This document shows, piece after piece, positions 19,425 to 58,916 of a stretch of DNA of 64,000 bases. The DNA is from Nitrospirota bacterium (lineage in GTDB: Bacteria; Nitrospirota; Thermodesulfovibrionia; Thermodesulfovibrionales; SM23-35). Location: contig CAWCKM010000047.1 in assembly GCA_963796125.1 (NCBI GenBank), forward strand, positions 66,299 through 130,298. The letters run 5' to 3'. The notes under the pieces were generated by a model that worked only from the letters and a program-made list of their open reading frames with translations, was not told the DNA's origin and did not search any database. The position numbers were made by a program, and so were the translations under genes. Each line of letters begins with the position of its first letter. The first letter of the stretch is position 1.

Positions 19425-20418
19425 ATGAAGAATATTCTTGTGACAGGGTGTGCAGGGTTTATTGGTTGGAAAGTATCTGAAAGATTGCTTGATGCGGGGC
19501 TGAGTGTCGTTGGAGTGGACAACCTCAATGATTATTATGATCCAAGGTTGAAAGAATGGCGCCTCAACCAGTTAAGGAAGAGGCAGTCTGAAGACAGAGC
19601 AAACAAGGGTGATTTTTATTTTTTCACGGGTGATATCGCAGATTTCAACTCAGTCAGGACTGTTTTTGCAAATAATGAAATCCATGCTGTCATAAATCTT
19701 GCCGCGCGGGCCGGCGTGAGGGCATCGGTGGAAGACCCCTGGGTTTATCTCGATACCAATATAAAAGGCACTCTGAATCTTCTGGAATGCTGCAGGAAAT
19801 ATAATGTTGGGAAATTCGTTCTGGCATCAACCTCCAGTATCTATGGTAATCACGAAATCCCTTTCCGGGAGGCAGACAGGACTGACGCCCCCTTAGCGCC
19901 GTATTCTGCAACAAAAAAAGGGGCTGAGGTTCTCTGTTACAGTTACCATTATCTCTATGGCATTGACATAAGCATCCCGAGGTACTTTACTGTCTACGGA
20001 CCTGCAGGGAGACCTGACATGAGTATCTTTATCTTTATAAAAAACATCGATACGGGTATCCCTATAACTGTTTTTGGCGATGGCAGACAGCAAAGAGATT
20101 TTTCGTATATTGATGATATCGCTGACGGGACATTCAAATGTCTCCAGCCTTTCGGGTATGAAATATTTAATCTTGGCAATGACAGACCCGTTGAACTAAT
20201 GCTCTGTGATTAGCCTGATAGAGGATGCCCTCGGTAAGAAAGCAGTTAAGAAGTTTTTACCCCGTCATCCTGCTGATGTTTCTGCAACCTGGGCAGACAT
20301 TGAAAAATCAAGGGATATATTGAACTGGTATCCAAAGACTACTATAGAAGATGGCATCCAAAAGACTGTTCAGTGGTATATTGAAAACAGGGACTTCGTG
20401 AACAGTCTTAAAGGGTGA
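19425..20418 (+). pseudogene. NAD-dependent epimerase/dehydratase (UDP-glucuronate 4-epimerase-like), one frame break
   Basis: The N-terminal part has GCAGFIG and YxxxK (YSATKKG). The C-terminal 70 aa (ISLIEDALGKKA...WYPKTTIEDGI..TVQWY) are in the +1 frame. The junction is at 20200-20210. Confidence 0.85.
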
Positions 20419-20509
20419 ATGAGATGCTCAAAATCTCCTCATTTATTCCTCTGAACCCTCTGGAAGATGAACTATAAATAGTAGCCCCGAAAGCTTTCGA
20501 GGTTCTTAA

Positions 20510-20542
20510 AATCCTCTTTCTCCCCCTTTTCCAAAGGGGGAA
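20510..20542. repeat. GC-rich hairpin element (ccccctttt-cc-aaaaggggg type)
   Basis: tctccccctttt ccaaaggggg aa. Same family as 38819-38851, 45668-45702 and 47251-47294. Confidence 0.65.
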
Positions 20543-20559
20543 GTAAATGATACTTACCT

Positions 20560-21550: not shown

Positions 21551-21610
21551 CGATTTCTCCTTTCTTGATAGTTACTAACAGTCTCATAATAGTAAAGACA
21601 TGAAGATGAT

Positions 21611-21682
21611 CCCCCTCACCCTTGCCCTCTCCCTCCAGGGGAGAGGGGATTATAGCTGGTTTCTCCCCATTGAAGGGGGGTC
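21611..21682. repeat. Double-hairpin element (ccctctccc..ggggagaggg type), copy 3
   Basis: ccctcacccttgCCCTCTCCctccaGGGGAGAGGGgattatagctggtttCTCCCCattgaaGGGGGG. Related to 41898-41983 and 43022-43109. Confidence 0.7.
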
Positions 21683-28994: not shown

Positions 28995-29082
28995 TTCAGA
29001 ATACAGAAAACAGTATTCAGAATACGGCATTCGGAAAGCTTATTTTTTACTGTTTACTGTCTACTATCTGCTGTTTACTTTT
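28995..29082 (+). repeat. Two adjacent heptanucleotide arrays (ttcagaa/tacagaa x6; tactgtt/tactgtc x5)
   Basis: The 7-nt units are counted base by base. The arrays are separated by 11 nt and end 3 nt before the accD ATG. Confidence 0.85.
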
Positions 29083-29085
29083 AAT

Positions 29086-31285: not shown

Positions 31286-31287
31286 AA

Positions 31288-31322
31288 GTGAACAGTGAAC
31301 AGTTATCAGTGAATAGTAAGAA
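31288..31322 (+). repeat. Heptanucleotide array (gtgaaca gtgaaca gttatca gtgaata gtaagaa)
   Basis: Read directly from the sequence. Confidence 0.85.
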
Positions 31323-31380
31323 ATATGCTATTAATCTCTCAAGTTCTTAAAAATTATTTGAGATCTTTGGTTGTATTCTT

Positions 31381-31448
31381 GTCATGCCGGCTTGTCCGGC
31401 ATCCTTCTTTGAAGAAAGATTCCCGAGGCGACGACAAGCGGGAATGAC
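31381..31448 (+). repeat. Two-hairpin GTCAT...ATGAC element, copy B
   Basis: Near-identical to 73-132 apart from a 7-nt insert (ggcgacg). The flanking ~25 nt up to an ATG are also conserved. Confidence 0.8.
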
Positions 31449-33400
31449 AGACAACCAGTGGAACAGAGTTCGCTATGAAATTATTTTCATTATTTTACTA
31501 TTCACTATTCACTATTCACTATTTACTAATTATTGTTTTGCACAAGGAGAAACAACCATAACTTCCGAGACCCTTGAATACATAGAAAGTACATCCACAT
31601 ATATCGCAAAAGGTTCTGTGAAGATTACGAGCGGAGGGAGAGTCATTGAAGCAGATGAGATGATCTACAATGAACAGACAACCGGTATCAGTGCGTCAGG
31701 CAACGTACGGTATGATGACGCCCAGGTGGTAATCACGTCAAGTAAGCTGGAGTTGAATATGGAAACAGATACAGGCAAAGTTTATGATGCAGTGATCTTA
31801 TTCAAAAAAGACAGTTATCATATCTCCGGGAAATCGATCGAAAAGAGGGGTGAGAAGTATTACTATGCCCCTGAGGCAACATTCTCTACCTGTGATGATC
31901 CTGTTCCTGCATGGTCTTTCAAAGGTAAAGATGTAGATCTCCAGGTCGATGAGAGGTTAAAGGCAAAACATGTATCTTTTTACATCAAGGATGTTCCAGC
32001 GCTCTATACCCCTTATTTCTTTCTTCCTTTCCATACCGACAGAGAAACAGGTTTTTTGATTCCGGTTGTAGATTACAGTACTTCAAGGGGATTGCACCTG
32101 AACATTCCTTTTTACTGGGTCATATCAGAAAACAGGGATGCAACTGCGGTACTGGATGTCTATTCAGAGAGGGGAATCGGGGAGGGTCTGGAATACAGAT
32201 ATATAGAACCGGAAGGCATCAAAGGAAACTGGTGGCTTTACCATATAAGGGACACGGAACTTAATAAGGATTTCTTTGAAATGAGGGCATTGCATGAACA
32301 GAGGTCACAAGAAAGACTGGGAGGGTTTCTGAGCATCAACTTTGTCAACGAAAAAGATTTCTACAGAGAGTTCAGTCCCTACCTTGAGGTAAGCACACTC
32401 CGATTTCTTGAGTCTACAGGAGAGATCTCTCTCCCTCTCAGGAACTCCCGTGCTTATCTTCTAACTCAGTACTGGGTAGACCTGGAAGAGGAGCTAAGAC
32501 CTCCATTGCAGAGATTACCGGAAGCAGGATATGTCCTTTATCCTACAAAGGTCGGTCCTTTCTGGTTTTCCGGCACATCAACAGTCTCCAATTTCTGGAG
32601 GGATGAAGACATGTTTGGGCAGAGGCTTGATATCTACCCGGGGATGTTATCCAAGGTCGGTAATGAGTTTGTCCTTACCCAGTCACTTGGTTTTCGGGAA
32701 ACAGCCTATGCCCTGCACAGGACAGAGGAGGACTCATTACATAGAGAGGCAATTGAATATAACATTGGAGTCCATACAAGTCTTTTGAAAAGATATAGTT
32801 CCTTTACACATGTTATAGAACCATCAATCGGATATACCTTCATCACTGACTTCAGAAGATCCTCCTCTTTTCGATTCAACAGAACTTTTTAAAAAGACAT
32901 CGACAGTAGGAGCCTCCCTCGTTAACCGGTTCTTTTATAAAGGTGGAGAAGTCGCTATTTTCAGGGCTACACAGTCCTTTGATGCAGAGTTAGGTGACAG
33001 GCCGTTTCTGCCGTTCAGACTCGAGGTCGGGATTAAGAAGCCTGTCTCTCTGCGCCTTGATACAGCTTATGATGTACATGAAGGGAAGCTTGACAGCATA
33101 AATTCTGACTTGTCTTTCAATATCCCTAGAGGAACACTGTTTGTTGGGCAGAGATATAACAGGCTGGAGGATGTAGTCTATTACAGGGCAGGATTTGACC
33201 TTTACCCGTCTAAACCCTGGTATGTAAGAGGAGTGATATGGTACGACGACGATATGAAAGAAATCCGGGACATTTCTATAGATCTGAGATATTCGAGCCA
33301 GTGCTGGGGTGTGAATGTAGAATTTATTAAGAGACCCCATGACTTTACCTTCGCAGTAATGTTTGATCTCAAGGGTATTTCGAAAGGCTTCAAGATATAA
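31444..33400 (+). pseudogene. lptD: LPS-assembly protein LptD (OstA family), frame break near 32854; start uncertain
   Basis: OstA-like N-terminal domain and beta-barrel body. The C-terminal ~180 aa (EDPPLFDSTELF...RYSSQCWGVNVEF...) continue in the +1 frame to 33400. The in-frame ATG at 31444 lies inside the repeat. Confidence 0.85.
31493..31527 (+). repeat. Heptanucleotide array (attcact x3 plus variants) inside the lptD signal-peptide region
   Basis: attttact attcact attcact attcact atttact. Confidence 0.85.
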
Positions 33401-34667: not shown

Positions 34668-36628
34668 CTAAAGTCTACCCATTTCCTCAGGTTTTTTTAT
34701 GGCCTCATTGTTGCCCGAGGGCCTTTTATATTCGAAGAAGGTAGTCATGACTTTTTTTACATAATTTCTTGTCTCATTGTAAGGAATATCTTCAATGAAT
34801 TCATCGACGGATTTATAATTTCCTTTTTGAATCCACTTCCTTACCTTCTCCTCGCCTGCATTGTAAGCAGCAAGGGCATAGGCATAAGAGCCGAATTCCC
34901 TGATGAGGGTACTCAGATAAAATGTGCCGACATGAATGTTGTTCCTGACATTGCATACCTGAGAAACATTTGTTATTCTTAGGTGCAGGTCACGGTTAAG
35001 ACGGAAAGCGGTCTGGGGCATAAGCTGCATGAGGCCAAGCGCCCCTGCTGTGGACCTGGCATTCGGATCGAACGTACTTTCTTCTCTCATGACAGACAGC
35101 ACAAGGAAAGGATCAATACTGTATTGTTGAGACACCGGTTCAACAATATTCCAGTATGCGTGAGGATAGCGGAGATGATGCACGGTTTCTATGGCAGGAA
35201 GTCTATTCGCAAGAATGACCAGATATCTGTATTCTCCAATGTCCTGTAATTTTGAGCCGATATACAGAATGTCTTCTATCGAAGTTGTGGTTTTTGAAAT
35301 AAAGATGAGTTCTGAAAGGGCATCTTCTGAAAGCCCGATTTCAAAAAGAGCTTCTGCCCGCTCAAATTTTTTAACTCCCGTATAGCCCCCTTTAAGTTCC
35401 CCCTTACTAAGGGCGTGATCATCCAGTAGAGGGTAAGGGGGAATTGAAAGGGGGTGGAGGCGGATTATTTTCATGGTTTCCTGTGTCACCGTGGGATTCC
35501 ATTGTTTCTTTAGTACCTAATTGTTCGATAGGTTCTTTCATCCTCAGAAAGGACATGGCACTGTAAAAGTCTCCATTCTTTTTCCTGAGTGTATGATATG
35601 AATCCTTGACATCTTTCCCTGAGGCTTCGAGGCTCCGTGCCTTCCAATAGAGATACTTAGTATCACTACTGTTCTCGTATAGTCTTGCGAAGACATCTGC
35701 AGCTTTCTCATATGCTCCGCTCATGAAGTAAGTCCATCCGATTCCCCACAGGGCATTTTCTGATTCTGAAGGATACTGTTCTAAAACATTCTGGTAAATC
35801 TTCAAAGCTTCTTCAATCTCACCCTCTCTTCTTTTGTCAGAAGCAACAGCGATAAGAATGGAGCCAGCCCTTCCATCTCCACTCTTCAAAAGTTCCTCAA
35901 GAGAAGAAGTAAATGTCTCTTTTCCCCCGGCCCGGTAGAGTGAATATACCTTCCAGAATTTTTCTTCTGCTTTCTCATATACCTCTGCTGCCTCGGAATA
36001 TCTTTTCTGTTTAAAAAGGGAGAGTCCGAGGTTTTTCAGGATCTCGTTCTTCAAACTCCCATCATCTTTTTCAAGCGCTGTCCTGAGAACAGACTCTGCC
36101 TCTTTGTAGTCCATGAGTTTCATAAAGTTCGATGCCTTTTCTATCAGGTCTCTTGTCTGCATATCTGCGGGACTCAGTTCACTGCAGGCCATTTCAGAAA
36201 GAGGGCAGGCACTGATACATATGTCCTTGAAAATTGACTTTGCAGCATCCGCATTATTCTTTTGAAGCCAGCGGGCATAGGAGTATTTTATTTCCATGTC
36301 TTTTGGATAATCCTTAATAAAGGATTCAAACAGTTGTTGCATATTTTCTTCAGGCACCTCTTGTGCTTCCGTGAGTTCTCTTGAACGTGCTTTCTTTTCT
36401 AAGGGGTGAATCAGGAAATTTTTTCAGGAGAGAACGGATAGTCTTCAGAGCCTCTCCATGATTTCCAGTTTCGTGATATGCGTCAGAAAGCCATAACAAG
36501 GCATAATCACCTAACAAGGGGAATTCTTTCTCTGCAATAGAGAGGCTTTTTATGGCATCTTCGTATTTTTTGCCTTCTAGTTCTTCTCTGCCCTGTCTTG
36601 AGAAATGCTTTGCCGTCAATATCTTCAC
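34668..36628 (-). pseudogene. Soluble lytic transglycosylase (Slt70-like: TPR-like superhelix plus SLT domain), 2 frame breaks
   Basis: Three abutting ORFs (36628-36350, 36357-35419, 35489-34668). The last one carries the SLT motif ESTFDPNARSTAGALGLMQLMP. The junctions are at ~36390-36400 and 35419-35489. Confidence 0.8.
35393..35462. repeat. GC-rich hairpin element inside the transglycosylase gene
   Basis: ttccccctt-actaa-ggg ... agggggaattgaaagggggtggagg. It coincides with the second frame junction. Confidence 0.55.
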
Positions 36629-36823
36629 AATAAATAGTCGAGCAATGAAGAATGAAGATTAAGAGGAACAGAAAACGTAGTTTCATAAAATTATATTAGT
36701 CAAAATGGCAGTCTTTGACAATATCAAAAAGGAACCATTCTTTTCGGTTTTACCACATGTCTAAGAGGAGAGACGCTGATAGTCACTTATTTGCCTAATT
36801 AATTCTGTCAGGTTTCTCTGCCA

Positions 36824-38629: not shown

Positions 38630-38818
38630 ATTCTTGCCCCTTTTTTCTCTTTCCTATCCGGAAAAACAAAAGGTTCTTCAGGCTTTTCTATGAATACTCT
38701 CCACCCCTCTGGAAGGAAGGGCCTGGGAAGATTTCAGAATCACAAAGACCTCCATGTTTTTTAGAACGCCCTGTATATTCTCGAATATCTTTTGTTGTAA
38801 CGTAGCATTGTTCCTTTT

Positions 38819-38851
38819 AAATCCCCCCTCACCCCCTTTTCCAAAGGGGGT
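38819..38851. repeat. GC-rich hairpin element (aatcccccctcaccccc-ttttcc-aaaggggg)
   Basis: Same consensus as 45668-45702 and 47251-47294. Confidence 0.7.
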
Positions 38852-38956
38852 TTATTCCACGACAAATCCCTGAGGAACCAAGCAGAAAGAGGCCTACTTA
38901 TGACGGAGAAGTTAAAAAAGATGCAAGATCTTAGTGCGATGAATCCATCAAGTGTT

Positions 38957-39032
38957 TGGAGGCGGCGAGCGGATTTGAACCGCTGCATAAAGGTTTTGCA
39001 GACCTCTCCCTTAGCCACTTGGGTACGCCGCC
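38957..39032 (-). tRNA. tRNA-Cys (GCA)
   Basis: The reverse complement ggcggcgta...gaggtCTGCAAAacctt...agcggTTCAAATccgctcgccgccTCCA folds as a 76-nt cloverleaf with anticodon GCA and an encoded CCA. Confidence 0.9.
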
Positions 39033-39041
39033 GTTAACGAC

Positions 39042-39137
39042 AGTTATAAGTTAAGAGTTAGTGAGTTAAGAGTTAAGAGTATTTAATCCAATTATAATTG
39101 CCTTTAACTTTCAACTCTTAACTTCATTCACTTCAAA
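39042..39137. repeat. Inverted pair of AGTTAAG heptamer arrays between the two tRNA genes
   Basis: 39042-39084 reads agttata agttaag agttagtg agttaag agttaag agtattt. 39103-39137 is the same unit in reverse complement. The arms can pair (gttaagagt/actcttaac). Confidence 0.75.
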
Positions 39138-39159: not shown

Positions 39160-39235
39160 TGGAGCGGGCGACGGGATTCGAACCCGCGACCCCAACCTTG
39201 GCAAGGTTGTGCTCTACCAACTGAGCTACACCCGC
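39160..39235 (-). tRNA. tRNA-Gly (GCC)
   Basis: Reverse complement gcgggtgtagctcagttggtagagcacaaccTTGCCAAggttggggtcgcgggttcgaatcccgtcgcccgctcca; anticodon GCC, CCA encoded. Confidence 0.95.
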
Positions 39236-39242
39236 ATAAAAA

Positions 39243-39271
39243 AGTTATTAAGTTAAAAGTGAAAAGTTAAA
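39243..39271 (+). repeat. Heptanucleotide array (agttatta agttaaa agtgaaa agttaaa)
   Basis: Read directly from the sequence. Confidence 0.75.
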
Positions 39272-39321
39272 AATCTCTAAGTACAACATCCAATGGTGCG
39301 TGGTATATCATAAGCCATCAC

Positions 39322-39534: not shown

Positions 39535-41079
39535 ATGGTCTACCCTGATTTAGAAGAGCTTTAAGATCCCTTTCATCAAAGGGAAATCTTAATTCCTGTT
39601 TACAGGGAGATTCTTGCTGATACAGATACACCTGTGTCAGCAGCCCTGAAACTTGGGGGGACCCCGTCATTTTTGCTCGAAAGCGTTGTAGGGGGTGAAA
39701 AATGGGCACGGTATTCCTTCCTTGGTTCAAGACCATCAAAGGTCATTAAGAAGCTGGGGCAGGAGAGTAGAAATAAAGGATGAAAAAAGGAAGAAACAGG
39801 TCTTTGACGTAGATGATCCTCTTGATATTATTAAGAATGAGATTAAAGCTTATAATCCTGTTGATGTTAAGGGTTTACCAAGGTTCTGCGGCGGTCTTGT
39901 TGGTTATATAGGGTATGACATGGTCAGATTTTTCGAGAAGGTTCCTGATCAGAAAAAACCCGGCCTCGACCTTCCTGATATGTTTTTCATGGTTGCAGAT
40001 ACAATGCTAATTTTTGACGGTCTCAGACAAAATATAAAAATTGTATCCAATGCCTATCTCGATGGCAAAGATAGTACTGAGGCATACTCAGAGGCTGTAG
40101 AAAAAATAGAGAGAGTGGTGGAACGGCTTAAACGGTCAGGGGTAAAGCAAAGAGCAAAGAGCAAAGAGCAAAGAGTAAAGGGCAATAAACAGGGAGATCC
40201 CGGAGTTCAGTACTCTGCTTCAAATGCTGAATTCTCTTCAGGGTATTCATCGTCTTTTGTTACACGGGATGCATTTGAGAAAGCAGTGCTCAAGGGAAAG
40301 GAATACATAATGTCCGGCGATGTTGTTCAGGTTGTCCTTTCCCAGAGGTTTGAACGTGAGTCTCATGTTGATCCCTTCCATATATACAGGGCATTGCGTG
40401 TTATAAACCCTTCTCCCTACATGTACTATATCGATACAGGCGATGCAAAAATTGTAGGCTCATCCCCTGAGATACTGGTAAGGCTTGAGGGTCGAAAGAT
40501 CATTCTGAGACCTATTGCAGGAACCCGGAAAAGAGGGGAGACAGAAGAAGAGGATGCGTTACTTGAAGCAGAACTCAGAGATGATCCGAAAGAAAAAGCC
40601 GAGCATATCATGCTCGTTGACCTCGGAAGGAATGATGTCGGGAGGGTTGCAGAGACTAGGTTCTGTGAAGGTCACAGAACTTATGACTGTTGAAAGATAC
40701 AGCCATGTTATGCATCTTGTCTCGAATGTAGAAGGTAATCTGAAAAACGGACTTGATGCCTTTGACGTGTTAAGAGCCTCTTTCCCTGCAGGGACTGTTA
40801 CAGGGGCTCCAAAAGTGAGGGCGATGGAGATTATAGAAGACCTTGAACCAACGAGGAGAGGCCCTTATGCAGGTGCTGTTGGCTACTTCAGCTATTCAGG
40901 GAACATGGACACCTGTATTACGATAAGAACTCTTGTCATTAAAGATAATAAAGTTTATGTTCAGGCAGGGGCAGGAATTGTAGCTGACTCGATTCCGCTG
41001 AAGGGAGTATACTGAAACCTTGAATAAGGCAATGGGAATGATGAGGGCTGTTGATATGGCGGAAAAGGAAATAAGTTAA
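39535..41079 (+). pseudogene. trpE: Anthranilate synthase component I TrpE, about 5 frame breaks
   Basis: All conserved blocks are present but spread across frames: MVYPD / ..LSSKGNL / [22 protein letters not shown] / WGRRVEIKD...[13 protein letters not shown] / [22 protein letters not shown]...GAGIVADS / EYTETLNKA...*. The junctions are at ~39549, 39591, ~39750, 40658 and ~41004. Confidence 0.9.
40146..40187 (+). repeat. Heptanucleotide array (agcaaag x4, agtaaag, ggcaata) inside trpE
   Basis: Six units (42 nt, so in frame) encode ...KQRAKSKEQRVKGNK... in a surface-loop position. Confidence 0.85.
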
Positions 41080-41889: not shown

Positions 41890-41897
41890 GTTTACAT

Positions 41898-41983
41898 ACC
41901 CCTCACCCTAACCCTCTCCCGCAAGGGGAGAGGGAACTATAATTATACCCCTCCCTTGATGGGAGGGGATGAAGGGGAGGGTG
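41898..41983 (+). repeat. Double-hairpin element (CCCTCTCCCgcaaGGGGAGAGGG + ACCCCTCCCttgatGGGAGGGGA), copy L
   Basis: About 85% identical to the reverse complement of 43022-43109. It overlaps the first codons of the trpD ORF. Confidence 0.8.
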
Positions 41984-43003
41984 GAGCAACTTGTGCTGAA
42001 AGCAGCAATAAACATGCTTGTCAATAAGGTAAGCCTCTCTGAATCGGAGATGGCTGAGTGCATGAATGAGATTATGGAGGGAAGGGCAACTGATGCCCAG
42101 ATTGGGGCATTCCTTACAGCTTTAAGGGTGAAAGGAGAGACGGTTGAGGAGATAACGGGTGCCGCAAGGATTATGAGGGAGAAGGCAATAACCATCAAGG
42201 CGCCAGAAGGGGTTCTCGATACGTGCGGGACTGGCGGTGATATGTCACACACCTTTAATATTTCCACAACGACATCAATCGTTGTCTCTGCCTGTGGTGT
42301 TCCTGTTGCAAAACATGGGAATCGTTCTGTCTCAAGCCAGTCCGGCAGTGCTGATGTCCTTGAGGCCCTTGGTATTATCATCGATCTTCCTCCCGAGAAA
42401 GTTGAAGAATGTCTTTTCGAGACAGGTTTTGGATTTCTTTTTGCACCGTTATTCCATCCTGCGATGAAATACGCTATAGGGCCAAGAAGGGAAATGGGTA
42501 TAAGAACTATTTTCAATATCCTCGGCCCACTGACGAATCCTGCAGGGGCAAAAAGGCAGTTACTCGGGGTTTTTGCTGATCATCTGACAGAAACACTTGC
42601 CATGGTTCTTGGAAACCTCGGTGCTGTTGATGCAATGGTAATCCATGGCAGGGACGGGCTTGATGAGATAAGCATTTCTGATGAAACAAAGGTATCGAGA
42701 TTTAGTGATGGTAAGACAGAAAACTTTTTCATTGCGCCGGAAGACTTTGGTATCAGGAGAATGGAGATCGATTCCATACTTGGCGGCAACAAGGAAGAAA
42801 ATGCATTGATAACCCTCGCAGTCCTTCGAGGAGAGAGAGGACCGAGGAGGGATATTGTTTTGATGAATTCAGCTGCTGCTATCGTTGTATCCGGAAAGGC
42901 AGGGGATTTCAGAACAGCCTTTGATATGGCTGCAGATGGAATCGATTCAGGCAAGGCGTTGAAAAAACTTGAAGAGGTAAAGAGGGTCAGCAATTCCCTA
43001 TAG
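41969..43003 (+). CDS. trpD: Anthranilate phosphoribosyltransferase
   Basis: DAQIGAFLTALRVKGET, CGTGGD, KHGNRS, NPAG. The exact start is uncertain (ATG 41969 lies in the repeat; GTG 41993 is an alternative). Confidence 0.9.
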   Translation: MKGRVEQLVLKAAINMLVNKVSLSESEMAECMNEIMEGRATDAQIGAFLTALRVKGETVEEITGAARIMREKAITIKAPEGVLDTCGTGGDMSHTFNISTTTSIVVSACGVPVAKHGNRSVSSQSGSADVLEALGIIIDLPPEKVEECLFETGFGFLFAPLFHPAMKYAIGPRREMGIRTIFNILGPLTNPAGAKRQLLGVFADHLTETLAMVLGNLGAVDAMVIHGRDGLDEISISDETKVSRFSDGKTENFFIAPEDFGIRRMEIDSILGGNKEENALITLAVLRGERGPRRDIVLMNSAAAIVVSGKAGDFRTAFDMAADGIDSGKALKKLEEVKRVSNSL

Positions 43004-43021
43004 TGAAGGAATTACATAAAT

Positions 43022-43109
43022 CACCCTCCCCATACCCCTCTCCATCCAAGGGAGGGGTATAATTACATAGTTCCCTCTCCCCTTGAGGGAGAGGGTTAGG
43101 GAGAGGGGT
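43022..43109 (-). repeat. Double-hairpin element, copy R (inverted relative to copy L)
   Basis: caccctccccataCCCCTCTCCatccaaGGGAGGGGtataattacatagttCCCTCTCCCCttgaGGGAGAGGGttagggagaggggt. Confidence 0.8.
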
Positions 43110-43122
43110 AAGAGGAGGATGC

Positions 43123-44040
43123 TTGTCTTTAAAAGTAGGCGTTATTGGTGTTGGTTATCTTGGTCAGCATCATGCAAGGATTTATTCTGAGATAAAAGAT
43201 GCAGAACTTGTAGCTGTTGTTGACGCAGACAGAGAGAGGGCTGACGCTTTTGCAGAAAAGTATGGATGTACTGCATATTCTGACTTCAGAGAAATTCTTC
43301 CTCAGGTTGATGCCCTGAGTATTGTGACACCTACACTATCGCACTATTTCATTGCCCTTGAATGTCTCAGAGCAGGCAAGGATATTCTTGTAGAGAAACC
43401 AATAACAGGAATTGTCAGAGAGGCTGATGAGCTTATTCTTGAGTCAGAAAAAGGGGGGTGCATTCTTCAGGTGGGTCATCTTGAGAGGTACAATCCGGCT
43501 GTCCATAATGCCTTTGATATCATAAAGGAGCCCAGATTCATAGAATCAGAAAGGCTTTCGCCCTTTCTCGGGAGAGGAACTGATGTCGACGTCACTGTTG
43601 ATCTCATGATTCATGACGCAGATATCATACTAAGTCTTGTTTCTTCCCCGGTTAAAGAAATAAAAGCAGTGGGTGCAAAAGTTGTTACCGACAAGATTGA
43701 TTTTGCGAAGGCGTGGCTTGAATTTGACAATGGCTGCATAGCCGTTCTGACGGCAAGCCGTGTTTCGCCTGAAAAACAGAGGACACTGAAGGTTTTTCAA
43801 AAAGACTCCTACTTTTCTATTGATTACCAGCACTGTGAGATAAAACGCTATCATAGAACAGCAGAGGGCATGTTAAGTGATTCCATGAAGATTGACAATA
43901 AGGAGCCGCTCAGAGAGGAATTGGAGGATTTTGTCCGATGTGTAAAAGAAAGAAGGAGACCAAAAGTATCTGCCGTTGAAGGAAGAGAGGCACTGAAATT
44001 GGTGCTGGACATTACAGAGATGATAAGGAGAAAAGGATGA
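43123..44040 (+). CDS. Gfo/Idh/MocA-family oxidoreductase, GnnA-like (UDP-GlcNAc 3-dehydrogenase candidate)
   Basis: N-terminal Rossmann motif VGVIGVGYLGQHH. The GnnA assignment comes from context with the aminotransferase, lpxB and waaA. Confidence 0.65.
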   Translation: MSLKVGVIGVGYLGQHHARIYSEIKDAELVAVVDADRERADAFAEKYGCTAYSDFREILPQVDALSIVTPTLSHYFIALECLRAGKDILVEKPITGIVREADELILESEKGGCILQVGHLERYNPAVHNAFDIIKEPRFIESERLSPFLGRGTDVDVTVDLMIHDADIILSLVSSPVKEIKAVGAKVVTDKIDFAKAWLEFDNGCIAVLTASRVSPEKQRTLKVFQKDSYFSIDYQHCEIKRYHRTAEGMLSDSMKIDNKEPLREELEDFVRCVKERRRPKVSAVEGREALKLVLDITEMIRRKG

Positions 44041-45156
44041 AAAAGGTTGTTGAAGAAAGGCAAACGGTTCCCATGCTCGATCTGAAGATTCAACTCCAGA
44101 ATATTAAAGATGAGATACTGGAGGTTCTTACGGAAATTCTCACAAGTAGCCAGTACATTCTCGGTCCAAAGGTCTCTGAATTCGAGGGGAAGGTAGCCGG
44201 TTACATCGGTGTTCCTGAGGCAATAGGTGTTGCATCATGTACAGATGCCCTTCATCTGTCTCTCGATAGTTTTGGCATTGGACACGGAGACGAGGTGATC
44301 ACGTCACCTTTTACCTTTTTTGCTACTGCTGAAGCGATACTTTATACGGGCGCTCAGCCAGTCTTCGTTGATATTGCACCAGACACATTTAATATAGATG
44401 TAAATCAGGTTGAGGAAAAAATAACGGAAAAGACAAAGGCCATCCTGCCTGTTCATCTGTATGGCCATATGGCGGATATGGAATCGATAATGAATTTAGC
44501 AAGAAGACACGGTCTGAAGGTTATCGAAGACTGTGCACAATCCTTTGGTGCTGAACTGAATGGTAAAAAGGCTGGAAGTTTTGGAGATGCCGGATGCTTC
44601 AGTTTTTATCCGAGTAAAAACCTTGGCGGTTATGGAGACGGAGGAATGATTGTTCTTTATGACCCACAGATAGCAGGAACAATAAGAAAATTGAGAAACC
44701 ATGGGTCAAAGGAGTCTTACATACATGAAAAGGTAGGGTTTAACAGCAGGCTGGATGAGATACAGGCCGGCATTCTCCTTGTAAAGCTGAAGCATATAGA
44801 TGAATACAATAGGGAAAGGAGACAGAAGAGCAGCATTATATACAGAACTCCTTTCGGATAAAGTAACGTGCCCCATTGAAAAGAAAGGTACATACCACGT
44901 TTATCACCAGTATACAATACGGAGTCCCCAACGGGATGAAATACAGAAGAGGCTGAGGGAAAAGGGAATTTCATCTGTGGTTTATTATCCTGTGCCATTG
45001 CATCTTCAGGAAGCCCTCAGATTTTTGGGTTATAGAAGGGGTGATTTCCCGGTTGCTGAGAAGGCATCTCAGGAAGTCCTCTCATTACCTATCTACCCTG
45101 AGCTGAAAGAATCTGTGGTAGAGGAGATTGCGGAGATAATCAGGGACGCTGTGTGA
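44037..45156 (+). pseudogene. DegT/DnrJ/EryC1/StrS aminotransferase, GnnB-like, one frame break
   Basis: PMLDLK..., FYPSKNLGGYGDGG (PLP Lys). The C-terminal 110 aa (AALYTELL...HVYHQYTIR...YYPVPLH...SLPIYPEL) are in the +1 frame from ~44828. Confidence 0.85.
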
Positions 45157-46340
45157 ATACAGTCATGATCATTACCGGTGAAAGCTCCGGTGAACTGTAC
45201 GGTTCTCTCCTTTCTCAGGCATTAAAAAACAGGTATCCTGACCTCCTTATCCTTGGCGTTGGCGGTGAGAGGATGCAAAAGGCCGGCGTGGAACTCATCT
45301 CAGGGATATCAGGCGCTTTTGGCATTACCGAGTTGTTTTCTGCACTGAAAGATTTAAAAGCAGCATTCAAAAAGACAACAGAAGCGATTAAAAAGTTTAT
45401 GCCCGGTGTCATTGTCCTGATTGATTATCCTGATTTCAATTTAAAAGTGGCAGAGTTTGCAAAGATTCTCGGCATAAAGATACTGTATTATGTAAGTCCT
45501 CAGGTATGGGCATGGCGGAAAGGCAGGGTAAAAAAAATAGCACGCCTTGTTGACAGGATGGCTGTTGTACTTCCTTTTGAGGTAGAGATTTACAGGCAAG
45601 CGGGAGTACCGTGTGAGTTTGTCGGACATCCTATTGTCGAAGAGATAGAAGATGTTTTACGATCAATAAATCCCCCCTCACCCCCCTTTACTGAAGGGGG
45701 GATCATAGACTCAGGACGCAGGGCTTTCTTTAAAACTTCGCTCGGTCTCAATGCACATCTTCCCCTCATTTCTCTCCTTCCCGGAAGCAGACCCCATGAA
45801 TTAAAGAGACTCTTTCCGCTGATGATTGAGTTTATCAGGTATTGCAAGAAGGAATTCAGTGATTATCAGTTCTGCATTCCCCTTGCTCCGAACACAGACG
45901 AGGGGAAATACAGTCATTACCTTGAGACCCTCAAACGGGAAGGTGTAGTCATTAAAAAAGGGGAATCAATAAAAGTCCTCGCTGCATCAGATATGTCGGT
46001 TATTGCTTCAGGCACTGCTACCCTTCAGGCTGCATTTCTTGAGGTCCCAATGGTTGTTATCTATAAGCTCTCTCCTCTCACGTATCTTCTCGGAAGGTTT
46101 TTTGTTGATGTCGAACATATATCTCTGGTCAATATCCTTTCTAAAAGAAGAGTTGTACCGGAGCTTTTGCAGCAAAAGGCAAGTCCTGAAGGTATCACAA
46201 TGGAGCTGAAAAAAATCATGGAAGATAAGCCGTATAGAGAAGAAATGGTCAAATATTTCAGAGCATTAAAAGAACCTTTTTCTGGATTGGGGGCCTCAAA
46301 GAGGGTAACAGAAATGATAATCGAGATGGCAGGATGGTGA
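45153..46340 (+). CDS. lpxB: Lipid-A-disaccharide synthase
   Basis: ITGESSGELYG, YYVSPQVWAWR, LLPGSR, ASGTATLQ. Intact ORF containing an in-frame hairpin-element insert. Confidence 0.9.
   Translation: MNTVMIITGESSGELYGSLLSQALKNRYPDLLILGVGGERMQKAGVELISGISGAFGITELFSALKDLKAAFKKTTEAIKKFMPGVIVLIDYPDFNLKVAEFAKILGIKILYYVSPQVWAWRKGRVKKIARLVDRMAVVLPFEVEIYRQAGVPCEFVGHPIVEEIEDVLRSINPPSPPFTEGGIIDSGRRAFFKTSLGLNAHLPLISLLPGSRPHELKRLFPLMIEFIRYCKKEFSDYQFCIPLAPNTDEGKYSHYLETLKREGVVIKKGESIKVLAASDMSVIASGTATLQAAFLEVPMVVIYKLSPLTYLLGRFFVDVEHISLVNILSKRRVVPELLQQKASPEGITMELKKIMEDKPYREEMVKYFRALKEPFSGLGASKRVTEMIIEMAGW
45668..45702. repeat. GC-rich hairpin element translated in frame within lpxB
   Basis: aaatcccccctcaccccccTTTactgAAgggggga encodes INPPSPPFTEGGI, in the variable linker between GHP and LLPGSR. 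Confidence 0.75.
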
Positions 46341-46470
46341 TTTTTAGGAATGTATTTTCTTTATAGTCTGCTCTATTGCGTAGTACTGCTTTTTTTACTA
46401 CCTCTTCACTATCTCAAAAGGCCGAAGCAATTAAGGAAAAGATGGCTGAGAGAAAAGTTTGGATTTATAA

Positions 46471-46512
46471 ACCCCTCCTTATTCCCCCTTGACTAAGGGG
46501 GGAATTGAAGGT
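46471..46512. repeat. GC-rich hairpin element inside waaA (first frame junction)
   Basis: acccctccttattCCCCCttgactaaGGGGGGaattgaaggtggg. The arms are C5 and G6. Confidence 0.65.
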
Positions 46513-47250
46513 GGGTATAACGGGATTATCTGGGTTCACGCCGTCTCTGTAGGAGAGGTTATGGCAGCATTGCCTTTGCTGAAAAAGCTCAGAGAGAAAT
46601 ATCCATCTAAAAGCATTATACTGTCAACCATTACTGACTACAGGGCAGAAGGTTGGAAGAGAAGGGGCACCTGAAGGCACGTCAGTTGTTTATCTTCCTT
46701 TTGATATCCCTTTCATCCTCAGGACTGTTCTCAGACGATTCAAACCAGAGCTTCTTATAACAATAGAGACAGAATTATGGCCCAATATCTTCAAGATTTT
46801 CAAAGAACACGGGATTCCCGTAATCTTGCTCAATGGAAGAATTTCCGGGAACTCATTCAAGGGATATAAAAAGATATTTTTTTTTATGAAGAGAGTTCTC
46901 GCCCATGTAGACCTCTTTTGTATGCAGTCTGAACTCGATGCAGAAAGAATAAGAAGCCTTGGTGTTGAGAGAGACAGGATAAAGGTTCTGGGTAATTTCA
47001 AGTTTGATACAAAACCTCCTTCAGCAATTCCTGAATGGGCTGAAAGAATTTCAGGGCCTGTCCTTATTGCCGGCAGTACACATGAGGGGGAAGAGGAATT
47101 GATAATGTCTGTTTACCGTGAACTGAAAAAAGATTTTTTTGATCTTAATCTCATCATTGCTCCACGACATCCTGAAAGGTTTCAGGGAGTTGAAGACTTG
47201 CTCAGATCAAAAGGGCTCTCGTTTATAAAGCGATCAGAGTTCAGAACCTC

Positions 47251-47294
47251 TAATCCCCCCACCCCCCCTTTGGGAAAGGGGGGTGGGGGGGGAG
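47251..47294. repeat. GC-rich hairpin element translated in frame within waaA
   Basis: taatccccccaCCCCCCCtttgggaaaGGGGGGtggggggggag encodes SNPPTPPLGKGGGGGV. Confidence 0.75.
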
Positions 47295-47679
47295 TTTCCG
47301 AACCTCAATTTTTAAAAGGTGAGATAATCCTTCTTGATACGGTTGGTGAGCTATCAGCGATTTATGGTATAGCTGATATCGCAATCATCGGCAAGAGCTA
47401 TAAAGGATATGGCGGGCAGAACCCCCTCGAACCGGCATATTGGGGAAAGGCGATTGTATGCGGACCTCATATGGAAAATTTTCCTTTTATCCGGGATTTC
47501 TACAGTCAGGGTGCATCCTTAGAAGCAAATGAAGAAAGTCTTTATTCAGCATTAAGAGAGCTTCTCTATTCGCCTGAGAAAGTAAGAAAGATGGGCGATA
47601 AGGCTAAGGAGATTTATATGAAGAATTCAGGCGCTGTTGAGAAGGCAATGGAAGTTCTTACACAATATATCCGTTGAAA

Positions 47680-48404
47680 TAAAAGAGCCATTTTAAAGGT
47701 CTGCTTGATTGGACAGCCTGGACGCTGGCATATCTTACTTTATGCGCTACGTCTTACAGGATGGCCATTTACCCTTATTATGGCTCTATAGTTAGTTGCG
47801 ATCCCCAGATCCGTGAAACAAACCCTAAGCTCTTTTTTCTAAGTGGGTGCTTCGGTAGATGCTTTAGGCTTCCTCCTCACTGCTGGAGGCTTGCTCACCA
47901 CATCTAACTCCCGCTCCCGATCCCAGTGACTTGATTCTCAGGTTTCGCGTCCTGGGAGTCGCAATTCCTTTTTCCTAATTTCAATTTAGATCCTTTCGTA
48001 AGACATTGCAAGGGTCAGATATCTTGAAAAAGGAACGGCCAGGCTCGTTCCCTCATATTAATATCTGCTATTGATCATTCTGTCTCGCGATCAACAATTA
48101 TTGATGTCTTTCATGAGCTATTAGAGATGCAAAGAAAAACCCCGACAATTCAACACTATATTCAGCAAAACTGTTTCCTAGTGATACCGAAGATTTACTC
48201 TCTAAACCACGTGTAATGAAAAATATTTTCATTGTGAAAGCCTGCTTCCCCGGGGAGCGCAAGACTCCGAATAACACTTAGAAATGCACACCTCGGAAGT
48301 TTCCGACCTCCGTTTAGTGCTTCCTGAAGTCACTAACTCCGCAATCTGCTAAAATAGCTCATGTTACTGATAATTGACATCAGGCATCTCCGAGCCAAAA
48401 AATA
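47680..48404. other. 725-nt segment with no ORF of 60 aa or more in any frame (candidate ncRNA or decayed DNA)
   Basis: The ORF track is empty here. Several short stems are present (48032-37/48046-51 ggaacg/cgttcc; 48071-76/48089-94 ttgatc/gatcaa). It matches no RNA family I can recognise. Confidence 0.4.
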
Positions 48405-51676: not shown

Positions 51677-51763
51677 TCTCTTCCTCCTGTATTTATTTTG
51701 GCTTAAAAATTTGTTTTTTAATAGGTAAGTGTAATTGTAATAAATTTCTTATGCTTTTGGCAA

Positions 51764-51806
51764 CCTCCCCTTAATCCCCTCCTTGGTGAGGAGGGGAATG
51801 AGGAGG
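51764..51806. repeat. GC-rich hairpin element (cccctcc-ttggtga-ggagggg)
   Basis: Palindrome read from the sequence, upstream of the nadB start. Confidence 0.55.
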
Positions 51807-51857
51807 TATCAATGGCTTTCTCTTGATTTCCCCTCATCTATCCGTTATCCTTCCTGT

Positions 51858-53458
51858 ATGAAAAATGAGATAGTTGATTTTCTCATCATAGGCAGTGGTG
51901 TTGCAGGGCTCAGGGCCGCCATAGAGCTTGCACCCTACGGGAGTATCCTTATCGCGACAAAGGACAGACCAAGGGAGAGCAGCACCGAGTATGCCCAGGG
52001 GGGTATCGCTGTTGCACTGAGTGATGAGGATGAAATAGGTATCCACTATGAAGATACCCTCAGAGCCGGAGATGGTCTCTGCAGGGAAGAAGCCGTGAAA
52101 ATACTCGTTGAGGAAGGCCCTGAAAGGATTATGGAGCTTATATCATGGGGTGCAGAGTTCGACAAAGAGGGAACAAAGCTTGACTTCACGATTGAGGCTG
52201 CCCATTCAAGAAGGAGAATACTGCATGCCCATGGTGATGCAACGGGAAGGGAACTCGAGAGAGTTCTTCTCGGAAAGGTAAATTTTTTTACATCTATTAT
52301 CACCTATCCCTTTTCCTTTACTATTGATCTGATTGTTCGAGATGAGGAATGTCATGGTGCTTACATTTTAAAGGGGAGAGAAATCATCGCTGTGTCCGCC
52401 GGAGCAACAATTTTGGCTACAGGCGGAGGATGCCAGGTTTTTTCGAGGACAACAAACCCGCCTGTTTCAACAGGAGATGGTATGGCAATAGCCTTCAGGG
52501 CAGGAGCAATGCTGGAGGACATGGAACTCATACAGTTTCATCCAACAAGTCTCTATTCTCCTCTTGCTCCCCAGTTTCTCCTCAGTGAGGCGATGAGGGG
52601 GGAAGGGGCGATACTCAGGAATATAAGGAAAGAAAGATTTATGGAGGATTACCATCCAATGGCAGAACTTGCTCCAAGGGATGTCGTATCACGTGCAATT
52701 ATATCAGAGATGGTTGCAACACGAAGTGACTATGTGTATCTTGACCTTACACATCTCGGGAAGGAATTTCTCAAGAAAAGGTTTCCACGGATTTATTCAA
52801 CCTGTCTCCAGTATAACATTGACATTGCCAGAGAGCTTGTTCCTGTTTCTCCGGCAGCCCATTATATGATGGGTGGTGTCAAGACTGACACCGGAGGTAG
52901 CACAAACATAAGAGGACTCTATGCAGCCGGAGAAGTTGCCTGTACGGGTGTGCACGGCGCGAACAGACTTGCGTCGAATAGCCTGCTCGAGGGTCTGGTC
53001 TATGGTGCGAGAACAGGGAAGACAGCGTTAGATTCTCCTGTTTCCAAAAGGACAGTTAGCATTAAGAGGTGATGAAATAACCGCATTACATGCCACTCGT
53101 CACTCGTTACTCATCTATTCCTGACCATGAAGAAACAAGACATGAACTGAGGAAGCTTATGTGGGAAAGGGTTGGCATTATCCGATGTGGGGAATCTCTC
53201 GGTTATGCAAAGGATAGACTTGCAGAATGGTCTTTCATGCAGGAAATAACTCCTCTTACGAGAAGGGAACTTGAACTGAAAAACATGCAGGTTGTGGCTT
53301 ACCTCATAACAGAGGCTTCTCTTCAGAGAAAGGGGAGTGCAGGCGCCCATTACAGATCTGATTATCCTGAAAAAGGAGAGGGATGGCAGAAGCATACTGT
53401 ATGGAGAATGAAAGATGGAGGAGTTGTTGATACCCGAAGCGTCCGCGAAACAGCATAA
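51858..53458 (+). pseudogene. nadB: L-aspartate oxidase NadB, with the C-terminal helical domain in a different frame
   Basis: DFLIIGSGVAGL, TGDG, HPT and RLASNSLLEG are in frame 0 and end at 53072. ...HELRKLMWERVGIIR...GAHYRSDYP is in frame 2 from 53081. Joining them needs two +1 steps; otherwise the gene is a genuine two-ORF split. Confidence 0.85.
53094..53114 (+). repeat. Heptanucleotide array (cactcgt cactcgt tactcat) at the nadB frame junction
   Basis: Read directly from the sequence. Confidence 0.7.
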
Positions 53459-58704: not shown

Positions 58705-58754
58705 AGCCAGACAAAGGGGGAAACAATAGGCATTAGCTTTGATTATTTTAAAGA

Positions 58755-58878
58755 GGCGGGACATAGTATTTTCGCTCATTCTCGGTCGCAACGACCTCCG
58801 AGGCTTTTGCCTCATGATTTTTATTGATATTCTCTTTGAATATCGGCAAAAGAATCCGCTCAAATACCACGTCCCGCC
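58755..58878. repeat. 125-nt element with terminal inverted repeats (ggcgggac...gtcccgcc), copy 2
   Basis: Core shared with 1265-1390; its own termini are inverted repeats. Confidence 0.7.
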
Positions 58879-58916
58879 TCTATGCCTGACTCCCGTAAGA
58901 AAGGAGATAAGAAAAA

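Follow-up and report, generated by a model that had tools for sequence, protein, structure and literature searches.

A ~45-nt GC-rich palindromic repeat lies in frame in hypervariable loops of LpxB, WaaA and other proteins of uncultured bacteria

A GC-rich palindrome of ~45 nt occurs in seven copies in the 64-kb stretch of Nitrospirota DNA analysed here (the window), and four of these copies lie within coding sequence, in lpxB, waaA (two copies) and a lytic transglycosylase gene. The Pro/Gly-rich segments encoded at these sites probably derive from a short selfish repeat, palindromic, non-autonomous and REP- or MITE-like, whose copies have been filtered by selection inside genes. A sequence-only reading of the window had already attributed the segments to a repeat, and the same DNA element was indeed common to intergenic DNA and unrelated proteins. 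The copies, with their covariance model (CM) matches, and the genes that carry them are:

45666..45705, + strand: shortened family-A element without its right outer arm, in frame in lpxB (CM match 45677-45705, E=5e-5)
46467..46517, + strand: diverged full palindrome, waaA site 1 (CM match 46470-46516, E=5e-4)
47249..47296, + strand: full-length 45-nt element, waaA site 2 (CM match 47252-47295, E=9e-17; -19.2 kcal/mol)
35385..35466, - strand: composite (nested) palindrome in the lytic transglycosylase gene (CM match 35395-35445, E=2e-3; -17.3 kcal/mol, z=-4.4)
20506..20554, + strand: intergenic copy, left arm diverged (CM match 20508-20554, E=4e-4)
38816..38856, + strand: intergenic copy with the exact 20-mer AATCCCCCCTCACCCCCTTT (CM match 38820-38856, E=6e-5)
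51762..51808, + strand: related palindrome (CCCCTCC...GGAGGGG) shortly before the start of a gene (CM E=2e-5)
45153..46340, + strand: lpxB (lipid-A-disaccharide synthase), intact, 395 aa (Pfam PF02684, E=1.5e-87; PDB 5W8N/5W8S, E=4e-50)
46350..47677, + strand: waaA (Kdo transferase), in three frames in the window from +1 insertions at 46491 and 46640 (intact in the relative L001, 441 aa)
34668..36686, - strand: soluble lytic transglycosylase gene, split by three length changes, +1 at 36599, +1 at 36399 and +4 near 35420 (intact in the relative L126, 670 aa)

In the element, a loop separates a pair of C-rich arms from a pair of G-rich arms in the general order AATCCCCCC-N3-CCCCCTTT-loop-AAAGGGGG-N3-GGGGGGATT, and the sequence reads AATCCCCCC-TCA-CCCCCTTT-loop-AAAGGGGG-TGA-GGGGGGATT. 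Copies span 42-46 nt, the consensus starts with (A)AATCCCCCC and ends with GGGGGGATT(T), and its non-palindromic 12-nt 5' part is AATCCCCCCTCA. The entire element forms a single nested inverted repeat (terminal inverted repeats present) with an internal period of 9 nt (C6N3 and G6N3), and five of its six frames are free of stop codons. The pattern CCCCC-N4-16-GGGGG was matched eight times in the window (0.36 expected), and AATCCCCCCTCACCCCC, with up to three mismatches, six times (0.21 expected). Repeat grouping placed the window sites at 20506, 38816, 45666, 46467 and 47248 in one family, and a CM built from 16 full-length copies found seven copies at E<0.01; both recovered the intergenic copies at 20.5 kb and 38.8 kb that had been proposed by inspection. 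Folding energies of the elements as DNA ranged from -9 to -19 kcal/mol (z-scores between -2.3 and -4.4). A scan of the window at Rfam gathering thresholds identified a TPP riboswitch and two tRNAs but nothing that matched the element; a literature search with the element's sequence strings returned nothing relevant, and one for repeats of Thermodesulfovibrio or Nitrospirae returned general REP papers only.

As originally described, the reading frame stays open through the element in lpxB, where it encodes INPPSPPFTEGGI (copy peptide (I)NPPSPPFTEGG(I); inner hairpin folding at -9.4 kcal/mol), and at waaA site 2, where the peptide is SNPPTPPLGKGGGGGV. The waaA site 1 copy, located after the N-terminal membrane helix region and ahead of the first beta strand, encodes INPSLFPLTKGGIEGGY in an intact relative and carries one extra loop G, at 46491, in the window. 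The transglycosylase copy falls between the superhelical/TPR part and the SLT domain, where intact relatives encode NNPPPPPFNSTLTPSVSPLSKGELKGGYTG. Conservation of these reading frames suggests that the inserts are translated. Outside coding sequence, the copy at 20.5 kb is flanked by an epimerase gene and folK, whose 3' ends converge on it, the copy at 38.8 kb lies in non-coding DNA close to tRNA genes (the homologous site is present in L031), and the palindrome at 51762..51808 places its right arm, GAGGAGG, a few bases 5' of an ATG.

The inserts lie in variable linkers, as had been supposed, and the structures of these were predicted. The AF2 model of LpxB had a mean pLDDT of 86.6 and 5W8S as its best structural match; residues 171-186 were predicted as coil, with pLDDT<50 at 174-176 and 178-183. 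In the WaaA model, pLDDT fell below 50 only at the two insert sites, residues 41-55 and 299-317. The inserts are thus predicted to be low-confidence coil, i.e. disordered loops, and they appear to be tolerated as floppy Pro/Gly loops. Window LpxB exceeds E. coli LpxB by 18 residues (~19 had been estimated). Comparison with the window proteins showed that E. coli LpxB and Aquifex WaaA are without the Pro/Gly segments, whose presence in distant taxa would have marked them as ancestral.

Alignment also bore out the expectation that the inserts vary by lineage: orthologues lack, double or replace the segments, and even contigs that are 97-99% identical differ. Among ~120 orthologues of each protein, all Thermodesulfovibrionales-like, every coding copy sits in a hypervariable loop. 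Depending on the orthologue, this loop is empty or contains a single copy, a partial tandem copy, a different palindrome or an array of heptanucleotides. Across 120 homologues the LpxB linker ranged from 30 to 83 aa; about half carried the peptide NPPxPPFxKGG and some had none, and at the DNA level 'empty' lpxB orthologues had heptamer arrays in place of the element. L002 lpxB has a half-copy followed by a full 45-nt copy at the codon position used in the window. WaaA sites 1 and 2, the transglycosylase and a TrpE-like protein varied in the same manner as the LpxB linker. Overall, three protein searches gave ~360 homologues with the inserts in frame, and intact copies were stop-free. A CM search of six related loci placed 12 of 12 matches within called genes, 9 of which are biased by the choice of these loci via lpxB and waaA; the matches extend to genes that had played no part in choosing the loci, namely trpE, a Gfo/Idh/MocA gene and lpxK.

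Two near-identical contigs (L048 and L049) differed in presence or absence of the element, and nearly all indels between them were repeats. Coding indels (+51, +48, +9 and +12 nt) were all multiples of three, compared with +223, +166 and +159 nt in intergenic DNA, and the 9-nt indels were located in G arms. Two filled/empty pairs from these contigs, with diverged flanks, showed no clear direct repeat indicative of target-site duplication; in both, the 10-20 nt adjoining the element differed too, so that insertion is not separable from replacement by recombination. At waaA site 1, one near-identical contig has a half-palindrome and the other a heptamer array, which looks like replacement and not simple insertion. 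Sequence divergence was 4.3-fold higher in the elements (12/126) than in the remainder of the genes (99/4426; p=5e-5). Between the window and L001, all five differences in the lpxB copy were synonymous, which hints at some constraint on the peptide, and waaA site 2 had four non-synonymous changes.

Beyond the window, 117 public contigs with a GC content of 33-68% contained the exact 20-mer. At least 72 of these also had, 3' of the 20-mer, the complementary arm, a stretch not included in the query, and in 32 the 20-mer was deep inside a long ORF. Pfam confirmed ORFs with the 20-mer as BamA, MetRS, a histidine-kinase ATPase domain and an HlyD/CusB (efflux) adaptor, in all of which the element is in frame. 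The 20-mer and hairpin occurred in MAGs of uncultured bacteria named for ~11 phyla, with multiple copies in loci from several of these, and the element was read in five different frames and on both strands. Viral contigs contained no exact match of the element and so gave no indication of phage carriage; nor did a transposase or RAYT turn up in the few loci inspected, or an IS with matching ends in the sequences analysed. We tentatively raise the possibility that all copies belong to one mobile DNA lineage, which has moved horizontally among uncultured bacteria of ~10 phyla (anaerobic, sediment and groundwater bacteria) and has proliferated independently in each host. Such a lineage might persist preferentially inside genes because its make-up suits translation, five frames having no stop codon and the internal period being 9 nt. 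If so, it would be a general and previously undescribed source of disordered Pro/Gly loops in essential proteins, with tandem half-copies giving rise to long inter-domain linkers, and the question would arise of what mobilises a 45-nt hairpin in many hosts.

A selfish repeat filtered inside genes could account for these patterns as follows. Copies would arise genome-wide through a putative trans-acting function or through recombination between copies, presumably at little cost or benefit to the host. Within genes, selection would retain those that add a multiple of three bases, without a stop codon, in a permissive surface loop; the stop-free requirement would be easily met because five of six element frames lack stops. 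Candidates for such loops are two in WaaA, the inter-domain linker of LpxB and, in the transglycosylase, the linker that joins the superhelical part to the SLT domain. Surviving copies would be translated as Pro-rich then Gly-rich disordered peptides of the form NPPxPP[FL]xKGGxGG[FI]. The 9-nt periodicity may drive in-frame slippage, giving 9-nt indels, arm loss and tandem half-copies, while substitutions would erode the hairpin. Given survival filtering, slippage and erosion, permissive loops would therefore gather different repeats and turn over quickly.

The main competing reading dispenses with transposition: local replication slippage, hairpin-mediated template switching and gene conversion among existing copies would generate and spread the repeats, and the 'hot spots' would be mutational instead of selection-filtered. 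The lack of a clear target-site duplication in the two pairs, fuzzy boundaries, sequence that is replaced instead of simply inserted, 9-nt indels within G arms, heptamer arrays filling identical loops and tandem half-copies in L002 lpxB and an L016 kinase all fit this. We nevertheless regard it as unlikely, since the 45-nt consensus, including its non-palindromic 5' part, is common to unrelated genes and to genomes of 33-68% GC, which makes repeated de novo origin impossible, and since it still requires some copying from an existing copy to a new locus, already a form of mobility. It is very unlikely that the segments are instead selected flexible linkers of envelope enzymes, with the palindrome a by-product of Pro (CCN) and Gly (GGN) codons. 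The synonymous differences in lpxB, the placement at domain boundaries and the long, linker-like Pro-rich arrays of the L016 sensor kinase would suit such linkers, but identical DNA is also intergenic and is read in five frames on both strands, orthologues lack the segment or have unrelated repeats instead, and codon choice is not free, as third positions create the arm complementarity; waaA site 2 has also changed non-synonymously at four positions, and the segments are predicted to be disordered. A function of the hairpins as nucleic-acid signals (mRNA stability, ribosome pause, attenuator/terminator or protein-binding DNA site) is similarly improbable. The hairpins are stable, intergenic copies lie close to 3' gene ends, TTTATT directly follows one copy and one palindrome overlaps a likely ribosome-binding site; against this, complementarity was lost via synonymous changes in a close relative, presence varied among near-identical contigs, the host genes are functionally unrelated and no Rfam family matched. 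A terminator role was rejected, with terminator-like sites not enriched relative to shuffles and a weak T tail on only one copy.

The frame breaks in the window bear on a further alternative, namely that ribosomes decode the frame-junction copies through programmed frameshifting or bypass them, or that these copies mark incipient pseudogenes that result from homopolymer instability. We compared six breaks (44823, 46491, 46640, 36599, 36399 and ~35420), including as a control for the frame-junction claim one that splits a neighbouring gene:

44823..44823, + strand: extra base splitting a DegT-type aminotransferase gene (intact in L001, 372 aa)

The sequence-only reading had placed two copies at frame junctions, at C5/G6 homopolymer arms. 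Breaks were indeed present in the loops of the waaA site 1 and transglycosylase copies, with more breaks elsewhere, and the homopolymer part of the claim did not hold, as none of the six fell in a C or G run when compared with L001 and L126. At waaA site 1, comparison with intact L001 (96.7% identical) revealed one extra loop G at 46491 (CTTGACTAAG vs CTT-ACTAAG); the third transglycosylase break, near 35420, is a 4-nt length difference in the loop. The other four breaks (44823 and 46640, compared with L001, and 36599 and 36399) were outside any element. All five clean breaks were +1 insertions of non-homopolymer bases that are absent from close intact relatives. Because the breaks are scattered, four of six are outside elements, none is in a C or G run and relatives are intact, they are probably sequence errors unrelated to the element; homopolymer slippage as their cause was ruled out by the base-level comparison. 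Two of six breaks do fall in element loops, which make up <2% of the compared DNA, and bypassed GC-rich palindromes exist in yeast mitochondria (as cited in PMC6649704). Yet the relatives lacking the five insertions share 95-98% protein identity, further window genes are split too and all database orthologues are intact and in frame, so that recoding or pseudogene formation is extremely unlikely.

If the segments are copies of a selfish repeat, such DNA appears to reshape essential enzymes, both envelope and housekeeping ones (LpxB, WaaA, the lytic transglycosylase, the TrpE-like protein, BamA and MetRS) by adding and swapping disordered loops, with a few permissive loops struck repeatedly. 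Such hypervariable loops could be sensitive strain markers, and palindromes with C and G runs are a hazard for gene calling, homology-based length checks, and MAG assembly and polishing.

Several known systems resemble this element. Cyanobacterial small dispersed repeats and STRR heptamers were reportedly described by Elhai et al. in 2008 and Mazel et al. in 1990. The dispersed repeats are very small and mobile, can nest in one another and also occur within genes, and genomes that contain them are rich in heptanucleotide tandem arrays; their sequences and hosts differ from those reported here. Terminal inverted repeats are shared with MITEs. The element is also REP-like in being a short imperfect palindrome with many copies (seven in 64 kb, and multi-copy in other loci). 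GTAG/CGTC REPs are 20-40 nt palindromes, a minority of which lie wholly in ORFs, encoding 20-80 aa; different REPs sometimes occupy one site of one gene in related species, and super-families span many taxa (Di Nocera et al. 2013, PMC3733652). The present element, however, lacks a GTAG or CGTC end tag (PMC3733652). Whereas REPs are mainly extragenic, it is mostly intragenic in the loci examined (4/7 window copies and 12/12 in related loci, 9/12 being biased by the lpxB/waaA choice), and the near-identical 20-mer itself is common to several phyla. According to PMC6649704 and references therein, yeast mitochondrial GC clusters, 'byp' elements and Nematomorpha coding palindromes are GC-rich or perfect palindromes in protein-coding genes of an AT-richer genome, the byps being skipped by the ribosome and the Nematomorpha repeats being long and actively maintained. 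The inserts described here are, in contrast, stop-free, multiples of three and decaying. Membership in the translational-bypass (byp) class was rejected, as intact copies are stop-free and in frame in ~360 homologues and the window breaks are absent from relatives.

The closest parallels are with the Rickettsia palindromic elements (RPE), reportedly described by Ogata et al. in Science in 2000 and in Genome Res in 2002. RPEs are dispersed palindromic repeats that lie in frame in unrelated housekeeping genes and add a peptide compatible with the fold (PMC10969869, PMC3184786). In both systems a dispersed hairpin-forming repeat is in frame in real genes and tolerated as extra peptide, copies occur in non-coding DNA too, and inserts are absent from orthologues and positioned in surface loops (predicted by AF2 for the present element). 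RPE repeat identity is lost over time (PMC6649704, citing Claverie & Ogata 2003), and a similar decay was seen here. RPEs are ~105-150 bp, AT-rich and confined to an obligate intracellular genus, whereas the present element is 42-46 nt, has C and G runs, and occurs in a Nitrospirota host and in free-living uncultured bacteria of ~11 phyla; it also shares loops with heptamer arrays and forms tandem half-copies. Length and host genus set it apart from RPE-1 to RPE-10. Palindromic repeats tolerated as peptide loops in essential enzymes had been called unusual, which overstates the case, as in-frame examples are documented in Rickettsia and, as intragenic REPs, in several free-living bacteria (PMC10969869, PMC3733652, PMC3184786); what is new is this repeat family.

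The GC content of the window is ~43%. The motif CCCCC-N4-16-GGGGG was matched 8 times in the window (cf. 0.36 expected), and the 17-mer AATCCCCCCTCACCCCC, allowing ≤3 mismatches, was matched 6 times (cf. 0.21 expected). A repeat search assigned the copies at 20506, 38816, 45666, 46467 and 47248 to one family, and full-length copies from the window and related loci gave a consensus of 42–46 nt, AATCCCCCC-N3-CCCCCTTT-loop-AAAGGGGG-N3-GGGGGGATT. A covariance model made from this consensus, run on the window with filters off, recovered seven copies and, at 21608, one copy of a second palindrome family that is related to this one.

Copies of the element recovered in the window by the covariance model (cut-off E < 0.01)
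47252-47295, waaA site 2, E = 9e-17
51762-51808, 5' of an ATG, E < 0.01
45677-45705, lpxB, E < 0.01
38820-38856, E < 0.01
20508-20554, E < 0.01
46470-46516, waaA site 1, E < 0.01
35395-35445, transglycosylase gene, E < 0.01

Folded as single-stranded DNA, element copies reached -9 to -19 kcal/mol (z-scores -2.3 to -4.4). The motif excess, the repeat grouping and the seven model copies show that the hairpin family proposed by the sequence-only reading is real. The right arm of the palindrome at 51762-51813, GAGGAGG, lies a few bases 5' of an ATG and may provide the gene that follows with its ribosome-binding site.

The ORF at 45153..46340 encodes LpxB (Pfam PF02684, E = 1.5e-87; E. coli LpxB structures 5W8N/5W8S, E = 4e-50) and stays open across the element, which is read as AAT CCC CCC TCA CCC CCC TTT ACT GAA GGG GGG ATC and encodes INPPSPPFTEGGI. 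The waaA gene for the Kdo transferase (46350..47677) is broken across three frames in the window, and the lytic transglycosylase gene (36686..34668, minus strand) is also split. LpxB, WaaA and the transglycosylase all have their nearest homologues in metagenome-assembled genomes (MAGs) of Thermodesulfovibrionales/Nitrospirota. The genes lpxB and waaA are direct neighbours (junction 46340-46350) in the window and in the related contig L001, and are separated by an msbA-like ABC transporter gene in the more distant contigs L002 and L046–L049. Upstream of lpxB (43123-45156) are a Gfo/Idh/MocA gene and a DegT-type gene which, going by family names, resemble GnnA/GnnB and would imply a GlcN3N-containing lipid A. 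Rfam matches at the gathering threshold were confined to a TPP riboswitch (925-1025) and two tRNA genes (38960-39032 and 39163-39235, minus strand).

Frame breaks were located at base level relative to two close references, L001 (96.7% identical to 42887-47773, with intact DegT, LpxB and WaaA genes) and L126 (intact transglycosylase gene).

Length differences of the window relative to intact references
44823, +1, DegT gene, vs L001
46491, +1 (extra G), loop of the waaA site-1 element, CTTGACTAAG vs CTT-ACTAAG, vs L001
46640, +1, waaA, outside any element, vs L001
36599, +1, transglycosylase gene, outside the element, vs L126
36399, +1, transglycosylase gene, outside the element, vs L126
Near 35420, 4-nt length difference, loop of the transglycosylase element, vs L126

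The proposal that frame junctions coincide with homopolymer arms was not supported, because none of the six breaks fell in a run of C or G, four lay outside elements, all five clean ones were +1 insertions, and ORFs elsewhere in the window were split too (near 20206-20213 and 40515-40693). The two breaks in element loops exceeded the loops' share of DNA. Sequence error appears to be the most economical reading of the breaks: added non-homopolymer bases that are absent from intact close relatives suggest that the reads or the assembly are prone to insertion errors, rather than that the genes are pseudogenes.

The LpxB and WaaA inserts occupy low-confidence positions of the protein models. Relative to E. 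coli, LpxB carries extra residues after the N-terminal domain ends and before the C-terminal domain forms its first strand; the longer segment claimed earlier is present, at 18 residues rather than ~19. In the AlphaFold2 model of LpxB (mean pLDDT 86.6; best structural match E. coli LpxB), residues 171–186 form a coil between two helices, with pLDDT < 50 at 174–176 and 178–183. The WaaA model (mean pLDDT 85.0) drops below 50 only at 41–55 and 299–317, which are exactly the two insert sites. These predictions are consistent with the proposed location of the inserts in variable linkers.

Orthologues differed markedly at these sites. Among 120 LpxB homologues (64–98% identity), the stretch from FVGHP to LLPGSR ranged from 30 to 83 aa; about half held a single NPPxPP[FL]xKGG peptide, some a half-copy and then a full one, many different repeat-derived peptides, and several none. 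In L002, the lpxB DNA has a duplicated left half and loop, after which comes a full 45-nt element, and the 'empty' orthologues of L046 and L047 hold heptanucleotide arrays, (AACTCCG)3 and (CTCGTCA)4. WaaA sites 1 (between REKFGF and IIWVHAVSVGE) and 2 (between FIKRS and IILLDTVGELS) each contained, depending on the homologue, nothing, the palindrome, a second palindrome family (peptide PSPSPLEGEGRGGG) or heptamer-derived peptides. The transglycosylase site was as variable, and in one loop of a TrpE-like protein the window has a heptamer array and L002 a 44-nt palindrome. Judged from these alignments, the inserts of four proteins share one pattern and are lineage-specific and repeat-derived, as had been proposed for those of LpxB and WaaA; the same peptides in distant taxa would argue otherwise, and since the segments are missing from E. 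coli LpxB and from Aquifex WaaA, this objection does not arise.

Other repeats are abundant in the window. Heptanucleotide tandem arrays, which also occupy LpxB and WaaA loops of orthologues, were found at 2195-2264, 29046-29083, 31287-31317, 31497-31528, 39049-39080, 39240-39272, 40146-40185 (AGCAAAG x5.7, in frame in the TrpE-like ORF) and 53094-53112, and resemble cyanobacterial STRR repeats in style. The second palindrome family (CCCTCACCC..CCCTCTCCC-loop-GGGAGAGGG..), also seen inside WaaA homologues, lies at 21608-21654, 41896-41983 and 43020-43110, with pairs flanking trpD on both sides. A ~130-nt MITE-like element with 31-nt terminal inverted repeats occurs at 58752-58881 and 1307-1373, and a ~100-nt repeat (92–94% identical, two internal hairpins) at 68-163 and 31376-31479, with a partial copy at 9653-9682; the latter repeat lies directly 5' of two ATG starts and may be a common 5' leader or promoter module.

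Turnover is recent. The JGI contigs L048 and L049, 97–99% identical across 10.7 kb, differ almost only in repeats.

Differences between L048 and L049
Coding, waaA site 2: 51-nt gain with a 44-nt palindrome adjoining a (GAACTCC)4 array
Coding, waaA site 1: half-palindrome in one, (AATTCGG)4 in the other
Coding, Gfo/Idh/MocA gene: 48-nt gain with a full 45-nt element
Coding, lpxB copy, G arms: 9-nt indel
Intergenic: 223, 166 and 159-nt indels made of other repeats

Indel length was a multiple of three in 4/4 coding and 0/3 intergenic cases. The 223-nt presence/absence segment (L048:531-753) is related to the MITE-like element. The covariance model had 12 matches in 69.5 kb from six related loci, every one inside a called gene; among these genes, trpE, lpxK and the Gfo/Idh/MocA gene had played no part in picking the loci. 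Between the window and L001, divergence of the elements was 4.3 times that of the remaining gene sequence (12/126 vs 99/4426, p = 5e-5); all five differences in the lpxB copy were synonymous and broke the stem, and waaA site 2 showed four amino-acid changes.

The exact 20-mer AATCCCCCCTCACCCCCTTT was found in 41 stretches of a species-representative genome collection, where by our own estimate from collection size a random 20-mer would match ~1 time. All 41 came from MAGs, 16 of Nitrospirota and the rest named for about ten other phyla, a count that binning errors may inflate; the GC range of the 20-mer-bearing contigs (33–68%) shows that hosts are diverse despite such errors. A further 76 matches came from metagenome contigs and zero from the viral contigs searched. 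The complementary AAAGGGG arm, which is not in the query, followed a short loop in at least 72 of 117 contigs, and the outer arm GGGGGGATT was also present 3' in 27/117. Several non-Nitrospirota loci held multiple copies within 8 kb. Thirty-two copies lay ≥40 codons deep in long ORFs, using all five stop-free frames; Pfam-confirmed hosts included BamA, methionyl-tRNA synthetase, a hybrid histidine kinase ATPase domain and an HlyD/CusB adaptor. In a 1446-aa hybrid sensor kinase from a Thermodesulfobacteriota MAG (L016:3651-7991), two long tandem half-element arrays of ~ten PPLEKG units each, ending in the G-arm peptide KGDTGGF, have evidently grown into extended Pro-rich linkers between domains.

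A selfish, non-autonomous palindromic repeat, with intragenic copies filtered by selection, is the best-supported explanation. Selection would keep an intragenic copy only if it is stop-free, a multiple of three in length and in a permissive loop; a survivor would then be reshaped by in-frame slippage between 9-nt C6N3 and G6N3 units and decay through substitution. That copies reach new sites by recombination or slippage is a live rival, because no transposase was seen in the few loci inspected, the element carries no GTAG or CGTC tag, the filled/empty pairs of L048 and L049 show no clean target-site duplication, and their waaA site 1 looks like a replacement. A functional role, as protein linker or as RNA or DNA signal, is made unlikely by the presence/absence polymorphism, the five reading frames in use, the unrelated host genes, the predicted disorder and the lost stem complementarity.

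The sequence-only reading was right in its core, as the LpxB, WaaA, transglycosylase and TrpE-like comparisons indicate in-frame, lineage-variable, repeat-derived inserts; it was wrong about the homopolymer frame junctions and overstated how unusual such inserts are. In-frame palindromes are well documented as Rickettsia palindromic elements (RPEs; Ogata 2000, reviewed in PMC10969869, PMC3184786) and as intragenic REPs, short dispersed palindromes found in several free-living bacteria and at times located at an identical position within a given gene (PMC3733652), and mitochondria have both coding palindromes and bypassed GC-rich palindromes (PMC6649704). Our literature search, incomplete in coverage, found no description of this element family. 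What raises its interest is multi-copy spread across phyla together with quick turnover of the same loops. Overall, the element works like RPEs and intragenic REPs, but belongs to neither group, whether judged on size, sequence, tag or host.
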